A stretch of 64,000 nucleotides of DNA from Escherichia coli (GCF_003334405.1 NZ_QOWM01000018.1), one strand, 5' to 3'; shown: positions 3,645-6,344, numbered from the stretch's first letter. Made by a program: numbers and translations. Notes: generated by a model from the letters alone, not told the origin.

Positions 3645-4847
3645 ATGATGAAGAAAAATCATATTACCCGCACCATCATTGCATCTGCTGTATTATTTTC
3701 CTTTAACGCTGCAGCAGCGACGTCATATTTTGAAGCACGTAACGATGCAATGGGTGGCACCGGAGTAGCATCTTCCCATTATGGTGTGGCACCTCTGGCA
3801 AACCCGGCTTTACTGACAAAGCACAACAGCAATGATGATTTCAGCCTTCTTCTGCCGTCTGTTGGGGCACAAGTTGCTGATCCTGATGATGTATCAAATA
3901 AAGCTGATGATGTTAAAGATGACTGGGATTTGTTTGATAGTGCTGTAGATAACCAGCATGGCGTACAACAGGCAGCAGCAAATCTTAAACATCGTCTGCA
4001 GGAATTCCGCAATATCAATGCAGATGCTCAGGTAGGTGTATCAGCTGTAGCAGCCATGGCAAATGACACTCTGCCGTTTGCCCTTATGGTCAAGTCTTAC
4101 GGAACTGTCAGCGTAAACGGAAAAGTAAACGATGCAGACCTGGATTATCTGGACAAAGTTGCCAATGGAACAATTACCGACGTCGATAAGAATGCCCTGA
4201 CCTCACGCGCATTCGGGCGTGCAGCTGTAATTACCGACGTCGGAATTTCATTTGCCAAAGAACTGGAAACGGCCGGACAAAAATGGTCTCTTGGCGTCAC
4301 ACCAAAATATCAGCGTGTGGACCTGTTTAACTACAACGTAACGGTTCGTGATTACGACAAAGACGATTTTGACGGTGACAAGTACCACAACACGAAAAAC
4401 GGATTCAACGCCGATATTGGTGCTTATACAGACCTGAATGACAACTGGACTGTCGGTCTTGTTGCCCAGAACATCATTCCACGCAGTATTGATACAAAAG
4501 TCGTCAATGGCTTTAAAGAAACCTTCAAAGTTCGTCCACAGGCAACCGCCGGTGTATCCTGGCATAATGACCTGTTTACCACTGCTCTTGACGTTGATCT
4601 GACTCCTGCCAGTGGCTTCACTTCTGACAGCAAACGTCAGTTTGCAAGTGTTGGTGCTGAATTTAACGCATGGAAATGGGCGCAATTGCGTGCCGGTTAT
4701 CGTCAGAACATGGCATCAAACTCCGGAAGCGCCTTCACCGCTGGCGTTGGTATCTCTCCATTTGACGTCGTACATATCGATGTTTCCGGCCTGGTAGGAA
4801 CTGACCACGATTACGGTGCAATGGCACAACTTCAGTTCACTTTCTGA
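3645..4847 (+). CDS. traF: conjugal transfer outer-membrane protein
   Basis: signal peptide, C-terminal aromatic terminus QLQFTF typical of beta-barrel OMPs; name by position. Confidence 0.6.
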   Translation: MMKKNHITRTIIASAVLFSFNAAAATSYFEARNDAMGGTGVASSHYGVAPLANPALLTKHNSNDDFSLLLPSVGAQVADPDDVSNKADDVKDDWDLFDSAVDNQHGVQQAAANLKHRLQEFRNINADAQVGVSAVAAMANDTLPFALMVKSYGTVSVNGKVNDADLDYLDKVANGTITDVDKNALTSRAFGRAAVITDVGISFAKELETAGQKWSLGVTPKYQRVDLFNYNVTVRDYDKDDFDGDKYHNTKNGFNADIGAYTDLNDNWTVGLVAQNIIPRSIDTKVVNGFKETFKVRPQATAGVSWHNDLFTTALDVDLTPASGFTSDSKRQFASVGAEFNAWKWAQLRAGYRQNMASNSGSAFTAGVGISPFDVVHIDVSGLVGTDHDYGAMAQLQFTF

Positions 4848-4854
4848 TTACTGT

Positions 4855-4889
4855 CCCCGCCCCCGGCACTAAACCCGGGGGTATTTTTA
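4855..4889 (+). terminator. rho-independent terminator-like hairpin after traF
   Basis: CCCCCGG-loop-CCGGGGG stem followed by TATTTTTA. Confidence 0.5.
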
Positions 4890-4906
4890 TATTCAGTTTA
4901 AATAAC

Positions 4907-5491
4907 ATGATGAAACCACGTTCCTCTTATTCAAAGACAGCATTCATTCTTTTATTTTCTGTTTTCCTGGTAGCTGCAGTGACAAAAGCAAAAAGCTCGC
5001 TTCCCGATATCACCCTGGAACAGGCAAAAGAAATTAATGCTGATAACACCGTTATTTTCCTTTTCCGCCATGGAGAACGTTGCGACCGTTCAGATATGCC
5101 CTGCTATTCGGATAAGAGCGGAATCACTATTACCGGTACAGAGAAAGCACAGCAGGAAGGTATTAAGTTCGCAACAATCTTCAGTAAATATGATATTTAC
5201 TCCAGCAATGCAGTAAGAACCATACAAACTGCAAAATTCTTCTCCGGTAAAGAACCCGTCGTTATGGACAGTTTATCAGACTGCAATAATGATCTTTATA
5301 AGACGCTTGAATCAATCGCAAGAGAATCTCATAAAAGGAACATAGTAATAATGACACATAATCATTGTTTATCATTTCTGGCCAGAGACAGGCTCGGCAA
5401 GAAATTCAAACCGGCGTACCTTGATGCCCTGATCATGCATTACGATGGTACCCGGCTCATACTTGACGGAAAATACAACAAAGAGGCATAG
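4907..5491 (+). CDS. traG: secreted histidine-phosphatase-superfamily protein in tra operon
   Basis: signal peptide; RHG catalytic motif FLFRHGER; name by position. Confidence 0.55.
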   Translation: MMKPRSSYSKTAFILLFSVFLVAAVTKAKSSLPDITLEQAKEINADNTVIFLFRHGERCDRSDMPCYSDKSGITITGTEKAQQEGIKFATIFSKYDIYSSNAVRTIQTAKFFSGKEPVVMDSLSDCNNDLYKTLESIARESHKRNIVIMTHNHCLSFLARDRLGKKFKPAYLDALIMHYDGTRLILDGKYNKEA

Positions 5492-5885
5492 AGGATATTT
5501 GAATTTACATAAATTCTGATATACTCAGTAAGATACAAGAGTGTACGGGCACATGTGCCTGTCTGAATTGCAGGTTATCCGGACGAGGGCCGGGAACTGT
5601 TTCAGGGACAAGCGCCGGTACATTCGATTCATAAATCGTCGAGTCATCCATCATGGATCGATTCGGCGCGGAGCGTTAAAGATTACGCTCATATTCGTTT
5701 TATGTCTGACGACACATCAACCAGCCAGTATCAGGAATAATCACCTTCAGTAAACTATGAGGCTATTTACCTGGCCACACTGGCATTTATTTCCGGTAAC
5801 GCAAGTATAGCCGGAAACAAACATCATCCTGTCTGTACCGGAGCACCGGTATATCCCATTCTGATTTAACTGCTCAGGAATTATT

Positions 5886-6344
5886 ATGAACCGTATTATA
5901 CCTGCGGGGTGTCTTGCCGCCCTTTTTCTGGCTGGCTGCAACTCCCCTTCTCAGCATACTCCTGTTCCGCGTAACTACGGTGCTGCCTCTGATGTGGCGG
6001 TTACCCGGCACACTCAGTACACATTATGGGACAAAGGTGTGTTTTCCGGTCAACTTCCGGTTTCAACGGGGTCTCATCTTCTGACAGCTAACAGCGATCG
6101 CCTTTCCTTTGACTGGGAAGGTGATGCGATTGAATTACTGAACGAACTGGCCAGAGTCAGGGGGATGCAGTTTAACTACAATGGTGTCCGCCTGCCGTTA
6201 CCAGTCAACCTTCACGTCCGGGATATGACGTTTTCCAATACGTTGAGACTTATTGAAGCCCAGACAGCCTGGAGAGCAACAATCCATCAATATCCGGGCC
6301 TGTTACAGGTCAGCTTCATGCAGCCGGAGAACCGGAAAAAATGA
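5886..6344 (+). CDS. traH: conjugal transfer lipoprotein
   Basis: lipobox LAGC after signal peptide; name by position. Confidence 0.6.
   Translation: MNRIIPAGCLAALFLAGCNSPSQHTPVPRNYGAASDVAVTRHTQYTLWDKGVFSGQLPVSTGSHLLTANSDRLSFDWEGDAIELLNELARVRGMQFNYNGVRLPLPVNLHVRDMTFSNTLRLIEAQTAWRATIHQYPGLLQVSFMQPENRKK

Follow-up and report, generated by a model that had tools for sequence, protein, structure and literature searches.

The stretch of Escherichia coli DNA analysed here (GCF_003334405.1 NZ_QOWM01000018.1, 64,000 nucleotides, called the window below, with coordinates counted from its first letter) contains the transfer region of an IncI1 plasmid, in which the gene traG is separated by a long gap from traH. 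We found that TraG is a full-length histidine phosphatase of the Ais/PmrG family with its catalytic arginine and histidine residues intact, and that the part of the gap nearest traG contains a conserved structured RNA. These are two separable matters: traG is probably an accessory gene for an exported Ais/PmrG-type phosphatase, and the proximal gap most likely provides the operon that begins with traH with its promoter and 5′ leader.

Judged by gene order and identity, the window is an IncI1 plasmid of the R64/ColIb-P9 type and the open reading frame (ORF) at 4907-5491 is the ortholog of R64 TraG. The order PilV/shufflon, rci, traE, traF, this ORF, traH, traI, traJ, traK, nuc and sog is that of R64 and ColIb-P9, and the conserved neighbourhood identifies the ORF as the historical IncI1 traG. 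It shares 98.6% nucleotide identity with R64 traG, occupies the identical position and is followed by an identical 394-bp gap. The TraG proteins of R64, ColIb-P9 and pESBL (WP_000977522.1, WP_023156809.1) are products of the same gene and differ from it in nothing of substance, whereas the TraG proteins of F and RP4 share its name and are unrelated. In PLSDB, 1336 records match positions 4700-6000 at 99% identity or more, and most of them are conjugative MPF_I / MOBP plasmids from Escherichia and Salmonella. RefSeq already annotates traG as a histidine phosphatase or a lipopolysaccharide (LPS) core heptose(II)-phosphate phosphatase; this half of our account is known and ordinary.

A preliminary description of this DNA had proposed a secreted-type protein with the motif FLFRHGER. 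Indeed, the gene encodes 194 amino acids, with the motif at residues 51-58 and, as read by eye, an N-terminal signal of the export type. The motif is not a chance match, because the protein scores 294.4 bits against NCBIfam PRK15416 (cut-off 142) over its full length, with residues 1-192 aligned to profile positions 4-200 of 201. The general Pfam model His_Phos_1 (PF00300) matches weakly (E 3.5e-4). The family is small, comprising 129 clusters at 50% identity out of 1.84 billion representatives. Among 72 members, H55, R104, C59, C66 and C126 are invariant, and R54, E57, R58, D60, H151 and C154 are at least 90% conserved.

A sequence search of the PDB with TraG returned no match, and the family profile was used for alignment instead. 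It places R104 and H151 opposite the catalytic Arg (RTIQTAE) and His (CHQ) of fructose-2,6-bisphosphatase. The AlphaFold2 model is confident (predicted local distance difference test, pLDDT, 94.8; predicted template-modelling score, pTM, 0.85), and the 50 top PDB matches listed by Foldseek are all proteins or domains of the histidine-phosphatase fold, including SixA, PGAM5, PhoE, RosC and MutT1. Fold matches in AFDB are TraG, Ais and AfrS proteins, with query-normalized template-modelling scores (TMq) of 0.8-0.88 for TraG and Ais. The fold and active-site check suggested in the preliminary description was therefore passed: the fold is confident, and catalytic residues beyond the RHG signature (R58, R104 and H151) are present. 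SixA, PhoE, PGAM5 and the fructose-2,6-bisphosphatase domain have the alpha/beta fold and the Arg-His-Arg-His core in common with TraG. They are cytoplasmic or eukaryotic, lack the cysteine quartet of TraG and a signal peptide such as is predicted for it, act on other substrates and are only 10-20% identical to it.

Among known relatives, Ais of E. coli and PmrG of Salmonella have in common with TraG the motifs RH[GA][ED]RCDRS, RTIQTA and THNHC, a quartet of conserved cysteines and a hydrophobic N terminus that would direct export, and all are roughly 200 amino acids long. At the N terminus of TraG, basic residues (K3, R5 and K10) precede a hydrophobic stretch of about 15 residues (~11-25), after which comes TKA/K, a pattern that suggests a Sec signal peptide; residues 8-27 are helical in the AlphaFold2 model. 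Relatives of TraG likewise begin with hydrophobic N termini, and one homologue carries the name 'aluminum inducible exported protein'. Two differences from Ais and PmrG concern context. Their genes adjoin the arn operon, whereas traG is plasmid-borne, and no PmrA-box regulation was seen at traG, although no systematic test was made.

PmrG removes phosphate from heptose II of the LPS core (PMC8129183). Transferred by homology at about 42% identity, the most likely substrate of TraG is a phosphate on an LPS inner-core heptose. TraG would be exported by the Sec pathway to the periplasm, where it would strip a phosphomonoester from the LPS inner core as PmrG does, and this dephosphorylation would make the outer membrane of the host or donor cell less negatively charged.

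Comparison with related plasmids marks traG as an accessory insert specific to the IncI1/I-gamma lineage, lying in a variable slot (~4891-5492), and not as a component of the type IV secretion system (T4SS). In IncK2/Z plasmid p5312.29 and IncB/O plasmid p3521, traE-traF are followed by 358 and 103 bp, respectively, and then by traH, with no traG between them. TraG-like matches are confined to the IncI1 lineage and to scattered contexts outside tra regions. Thus one part of the preliminary description, an unusual enzymatic fold at this place, stands, whereas its placement inside a structural T4SS operon does not. A G+C-rich hairpin with a U-tract follows traF in all three plasmid lineages, which suggests that traE-traF closes one transcription unit and that traH opens another. 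Homology with deletion and replacement variants stops at 4890/4891, the left edge of the slot.

Three loci (L002-L004) carry a TraG only 74% identical at the equivalent position. Against L002, the flanking backbone is 98-100% identical, whereas the segment from 4848 to ~5890 is only 71-81% identical or cannot be aligned. The number of synonymous substitutions per synonymous site (dS) is 1.12 for traG, compared to 0.01-0.03 for traE, traF, traI, traJ and traK and 0.14 for traH. The ratio of nonsynonymous to synonymous rates (dN/dS) for traG, 0.14, indicates purifying selection. In L038 and L057 nearly all of traG is deleted, leaving two remnants that correspond to window positions 5141-5200 and 5448-5491 (L038:237-304, L057:3066-3132). 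In L023, a metagenomic contig of IncI1 type, traG is replaced by a 90-amino-acid PilI-like ORF on the minus strand (L023:975-1247), with junctions at 4890 and 5493. Conversely, window positions 4723-5493, which run from the 3′ part of traF through the terminator and include traG (90% nucleotide identity), have been transplanted into L007 (L007:5817-6587), where traG is still under purifying selection (dN/dS 0.18). These allele, deletion and replacement junctions show that 4891-5492 behaves as a cargo slot. In PLSDB, 1373 records contain a TraG-like protein at 80% identity or more and 1367 a TraH at 95% or more; traG is thus usually kept alongside IncI1-type TraH, which points to a benefit outside laboratory mating.

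Several of these loci have further features. The deletion allele of traG occurs in two backbones, one IncI1 (L038) and one diverged (L057, with traF 83% and traH 70% identical), and in L057 a duplicated IncI1-like traH 5′ fragment precedes the resident traH. The ORF that replaces traG in L023 is 84-87% identical to PilI, a type IV pilus biogenesis protein, of 24-35-kb E. coli plasmids, and both the traF terminator and the promoter/RNA element of the gap (see below) are intact on either side of it. The recipient of the transplanted segment, L007, is a 91.6-kb E. coli contig in which traG adjoins genes resembling those of type II secretion (T2SSC, GspH) and a ricin-lectin/metallophosphatase gene; homology to the window ends at the traG stop codon. 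By eye, no GTTRRRY core of an attC-like integron site was seen at the junctions after the traG stop. A common allele of 188 amino acids (L013:3001-3567; 365 member sequences) carries an 18-bp in-frame deletion, which falls in a small region of local divergence in its N-terminal half (window ~5050-5150). A Salmonella contig (L012:1656-3585) encodes an allele of 86% amino acid identity with numerous substitutions by Phe, Lys or Pro. Diversifying selection was considered for this allele and rejected in favour of decay or poor assembly (dN/dS ~1, R61P, traF uncalled).

More distant relatives of TraG occur beside regulators. In L005 (732-2525) and L006 a 59%-identical homologue lies next to an AraC-type regulator; it is part of an E. 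coli island, upstream of AraC-family, GrlA/CaiF-like and GerE-type regulators and an autotransporter. The protein named 'transcriptional activator AfrS' (UniProt Q07682, E. coli, 193 amino acids) has the same fold and family as TraG (TMq 0.83, 37% identity) and, unlike TraG, was named a regulator on genetic grounds. The arrangement in L005 and L006 resembles the afrR-afrS pair tied to expression of the AF/R1 pilus. We treat this as a lead and not as a result; the AfrS homologue and AraC neighbour in L005 give a hint of a link to pilus expression.

The gap after traG had been described as the only long one in the traE-traK block, which is correct, since the other spacers are 85 bp, 59 bp or overlaps. 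Within it lies a structured RNA of about 160 nucleotides (nt), comprising helix 1 and two smaller hairpins. The predicted minimum free energy is -67.2 kcal/mol, with z = -5.2 on the plus strand and z = -3.1 on the minus strand. The diverged L002 version forms the same long stem and second hairpin. Fifty-three metagenomic contigs recovered with a 22-mer and the other loci analysed yielded 16 distinct variants in all. Each of the 19 pairs of helix 1 is retained in every variant (16/16). Two pairs have undergone compensatory double changes, one from U-A to C-G and the other through the series G-C, G-U and A-U, and three more show one-sided changes involving G-U. Over all pairs of the element, 97.5% of cells are paired, compared to 28-41% when the register is slid by one to three columns. 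Shuffled controls reached the observed values in 0 of 500 cases on four of five measures and in 1 of 500 for further pair types. In six pairs G.U predominates, and on the opposite strand such pairs would read A.C; hence it is the plus strand, in the sense of the tra genes, that folds.

Covariance model R1 of this element scores 206.9 bits at its own position, and the only other match in the window is its own reverse strand (5530-5630, 20.4 bits, E 0.0036). The element is present in R64 (NC_005014.1, 99053-98892) and in pCol1B9 (NC_017718.1, 65964-65803, minus strand). In pCol1B9 the predicted start falls near 65966, and traH occupies 65612-65154. Plasmids with the element occur in 799 (15%) of 5426 complete E. 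coli genomes. Rfam covariance models gave no match to 4700-6100 at E values up to 1, and neither blastn nor R1 found an independent second copy or homologue in the window, IncK2/Z, IncB/O, Pectobacterium or L005-L007. The element is retained where traG has been lost, leaving remnants, or replaced. It occurs with three left-hand contents (traG alleles, remnants and the pilI-like gene) and three right-hand alleles, which argues that it has a function of its own.

Upstream of the RNA is a promoter-like site whose extended -10 sequence, TGATATACT at 5517-5525, is kept in 16 of 16 sequence variants, including the one with the 74% traG allele, whereas the next 9 nt vary freely. The pattern TGNTATAMT has a single match on both strands of the 64 kb, and this match is the site in the traG-traH gap. 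A standard promoter scan found nothing on the plus strand of the gap, having missed the site because its spacer is 15 nt; the extended -10 was first spotted by eye and then tested. Insertions in traE, traF and traG in a transposon insertion sequencing (TnSeq) study were non-polar on traH-Y (PMC4288162), from which we infer a promoter downstream of traE-traG. In the arrangement that we favour, the proximal 200 bp of the gap, with its extended -10 promoter and ~160-nt leader, would drive the T4SS operon of traH-traK and onward. Such a role would explain why the element is retained after deletion or replacement of traG.

Conservation falls off beyond the element. In L002, identity to the window is 79% over the promoter region and 87% over helix 1, though synonymous sites in traG are saturated, and only 27-43% over the distal gap. 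In L057, helix 1 reaches 95%, compared to 83% for traF and 70% for traH. Among diverged relatives, identity is 87-99% in helix 1, 43-78% in 5696-5760 and 27-51% in 5761-5856. Two ORFs in the gap, one of 70 amino acids on the plus strand (5541-5753) and one of 49 on the minus strand (5505-5654), were ruled out as coding by a 1-nt deletion in L002 and a 1-nt insertion in L020; the minus-strand ORF has in addition four consecutive non-synonymous changes. The palindrome noted in the preliminary description is present (GGGCACATGTGCC at 5547-5559, of which GGCACATGTGCC is a perfect 12-mer). It was rejected as a signal: the window contains 20 perfect 12-bp palindromes, compared to 14.1 +/- 3.9 in shuffled sequences, and this one is broken in L002. 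The separate regulation that had been proposed for the gap is hence plausible on other grounds, namely the terminator before traG, the extended -10 and the structured RNA that follows, and gains nothing from the palindrome.

A number of observations weigh against our reading of traG and of the gap. On the side of the protein, TraG scores 124.2 bits with the PmrG equivalog model NF052369, short of its cut-off of 170, and its identity to Ais-type proteins is only ~42%. The miss says little, because Ais-like proteins of Citrobacter also fall below the same cut-off (145-148 bits). No conserved Glu or Asp of TraG aligns with the acidic proton donor of fructose-2,6-bisphosphatase, although E57 and D60 are conserved. 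Moreover, neither a Shine-Dalgarno sequence nor a promoter is visible for traG (4883-4912), and the gene begins with adjacent ATG codons at 4907 and 4910 and lies only 24 bp beyond the traF terminator, all of which makes its expression uncertain. On the side of the gap, the candidate promoter combines a poor -35 with a 15-nt spacer, and outward reading from the transposon may weaken the argument from non-polarity. No record of a transcript from the promoter or RNA element was found for pCol1B9, the published supplements covering only the tra genes of pSLT. The covariation stems from few independent events, namely one deep lineage (L002) and near-identical variants. Hairpin 3 resembles a weak terminator with a U-rich tail (to 5700), its 3′ arm is missing in L002 and its U-tract is broken in L015 and L038. 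Finally, IncK2/Z and IncB/O plasmids express traH without the element.

The main rival to a promoter and leader is a free-standing small RNA acting in trans, or alternatively a processed 3′ untranslated region of traG. The promoter-like site, a 5′ stem that begins 6-8 nt past the predicted start, the terminator-like hairpin with its U-rich tail (5671-5700) and the retention of the element without traG are all what a small RNA would show. The terminator is, however, weak and not conserved, and when duplex energies were computed between the RNA and 24 tra translation-initiation regions nothing rose above background, although this method is crude. A processed 3′ untranslated region would leave retention after traG loss unexplained. 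We therefore consider a separate RNA of this kind unlikely and favour the promoter and leader, since the element is co-oriented with traH and directly upstream of it, hairpin 3 is weak and unconserved, and insertions in traE-traG are non-polar. It is quite unlikely that the gap is inert DNA left over from the traG insert, its structure and conservation reflecting recent ancestry and palindrome-rich sequence. Such an origin would suit the distal half, which is clearly unconstrained; most copies are more than 99% identical and thus provide few independent observations, and kin sequences can outscore shuffled controls without any structure. Yet in L002, where traG dS is 1.1 and the distal gap cannot be aligned, the proximal gap remains 79-87% identical. 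Moreover, all changes in helix 1, including the two double ones, preserve pairing, and the element outlasts three left-hand contents and three right-hand alleles. It is exceedingly improbable that the fold works in the transferred strand as single-stranded DNA, whether in priming or as a single-strand promoter signal. Leading-region genes lie on the minus strand, which would make the plus strand, the one that folds, the transferred strand, but the element is ~32 kb from the origin of transfer, on the last-entering side and outside the leading region. In addition, G.T wobble pairs are weak in DNA, the stem has no embedded -35/-10 pair, and a hairpin promoter at this place would read antisense into traG.

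Whether TraG is instead a working part of the conjugation machinery, for example a periplasmic enzyme for assembly of the T4SS or thin pilus or for liquid mating, can be judged from published screens together with its distribution. Its place between pil/shufflon/traEF and traH, its retention in nearly all IncI1 plasmids and the purifying selection on it would fit such a part, as would the ability of IncI PilV adhesins to recognise LPS core structures of the recipient, one variant recognising a heptose phosphate (PMC10654706). Published transfer screens have used only surface mating into K-12. Against this, TnSeq of the IncI1 plasmid pESBL, which lists TraG as an LPS heptose(II)-phosphate phosphatase, assigned it probabilities of 0.79 for non-essential, 0.21 for maintenance and 0.00 for required for transfer, with TraE and TraF likewise non-essential (PMC4288162). 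Transposon-directed insertion-site sequencing of an I-complex plasmid found traH-Y to be required and traE and traF not (PMC10286972). TraG is missing from IncK2/Z and IncB/O plasmids, whose T4SS and pilus are the same; some IncI1-type contigs have lost or replaced the gene; and TraG looks functional outside a tra context (L007, L005). It has no similarity to Dot/Icm components, and it is neither conserved across plasmids with the Dot/Icm-like MPF_I system nor required for transfer. We regard a direct role in conjugation as improbable. In the preliminary description, the enzyme proposal was to be given up if catalytic residues beyond RHG were absent and the gene dispensable without a phenotype. 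Only half of this was found: the residues are present, yet the pESBL data make the gene dispensable for transfer (PMC4288162).

A role for TraG in editing the donor surface is conceivable, because PilV adhesins read the LPS core. As a tentative extension, the element at 5534-5695 might be an undescribed regulatory RNA, a structured leader or riboregulator under the control of its own extended -10 promoter, that gates the operon from traH onward, and TraG might edit donor LPS that is read by PilV, with effects on self-recognition or mating-pair formation. The element in the gap shares with the Inc RNA/repZ leader of IncI1 and the FinP/traJ leader of F the character of a compact, highly structured plasmid RNA beside a key operon. 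It differs from them in having no Rfam likeness and no evident antisense partner, and in lying upstream of traH. IncI1 plasmids also encode an RNA-binding protein with a FinO domain, FopA (PMC7491321).

IncI1 plasmids are major carriers of extended-spectrum beta-lactamase and AmpC resistance genes in E. coli and Salmonella, and activation of their transfer genes is poorly defined beyond the activators TraB and TraC. The gap element, which combines a candidate promoter with a conserved structured RNA immediately before the T4SS core genes, is new at the level of annotation and offers a concrete handle on this activation. The locus as a whole is a defined slot in which cargo is swapped between otherwise identical plasmids. 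A plasmid with LPS-reading adhesins here keeps a homologue of an LPS-core phosphatase under purifying selection.

Coordinates of features in and around the traG-traH gap (window positions)
Feature	Position	Strand	Remarks
Intrinsic-terminator-like hairpin and U-tract directly 3′ of traF	4859..4892	+	8-bp stem, 7 G-C pairs, then ATTTTTATAT
traG coding sequence, predicted exported branch-1 histidine phosphatase, Ais/PmrG (PRK15416) family	4907..5491	+	
Predicted Sec signal peptide	4907..4990	+	residues 1 to ~28, read by eye
FLFRHGER motif	5057..5080	+	R54, H55 (predicted nucleophile), R58
R104 codon, second phosphate-binding Arg	5216..5218	+	S..RTIQTA motif; invariant in 72 family members
H151 codon, second catalytic His	5357..5359	+	THNHC motif; at least 90% conserved in family
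traG-traH gap	5492..5885		394 bp; unannotated in every record examined
Promoter-like element	5499..5525	+	TTGAAT 5499-5504, 15-nt spacer, extended -10; predicted start ~5532
Structured RNA, ~160 nt	5534..5695	+	helix 1 5539-5625, hairpin 2 5637-5668, hairpin 3 5671-5690
Palindrome GGCACATGTGCC	5548..5559		part of helix 1 5′ arm
Distal gap	5696..5856		poorly conserved spacer, no detected feature
traH ribosome-binding region	5857..5885	+	CTGCTCAGGA...ATG; common to L002 and IncK2/Z
traH, DotD-like lipoprotein	5886..6344	+	first gene of the T4SS core block

The distal gap of L002 has been partly replaced by IncK2/Z-like sequence. Positions L002:6936-7084 are 75% identical to the IncK2/Z spacer, so that L002 is a mosaic of an IncI1 backbone and an IncK/Z-like region upstream of traH; the L002 variant of the distal gap had no match in PLSDB. 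The IncK2/Z spacer between traF and traH (L009:4643-5000) itself contains an unannotated ORF of ~62 codons.

Base composition changes along the region, with 41-47% G+C across traE, traF, traG and the gap (41-44% in the traG slot) compared to 50-53% in traH-K. The neighbouring protein TraF (3645-4847) resembles outer-membrane beta-barrels of the PorV/PorQ/FadL type, with matches to Pfam TraF_2 / PorP_SprF and a score of 55.7 bits, under the cut-off, with NCBIfam PorV_fam. Because TraF resembles such barrels and is non-essential for transfer in TnSeq, traE-traF-traG appear to form an envelope-related accessory set outside the T4SS core. Farther upstream, the window starts inside the PilV shufflon, where several short C-terminal pilV segments in inverted orientation precede the rci recombinase gene at 1394-2584 (1-2584 in all).

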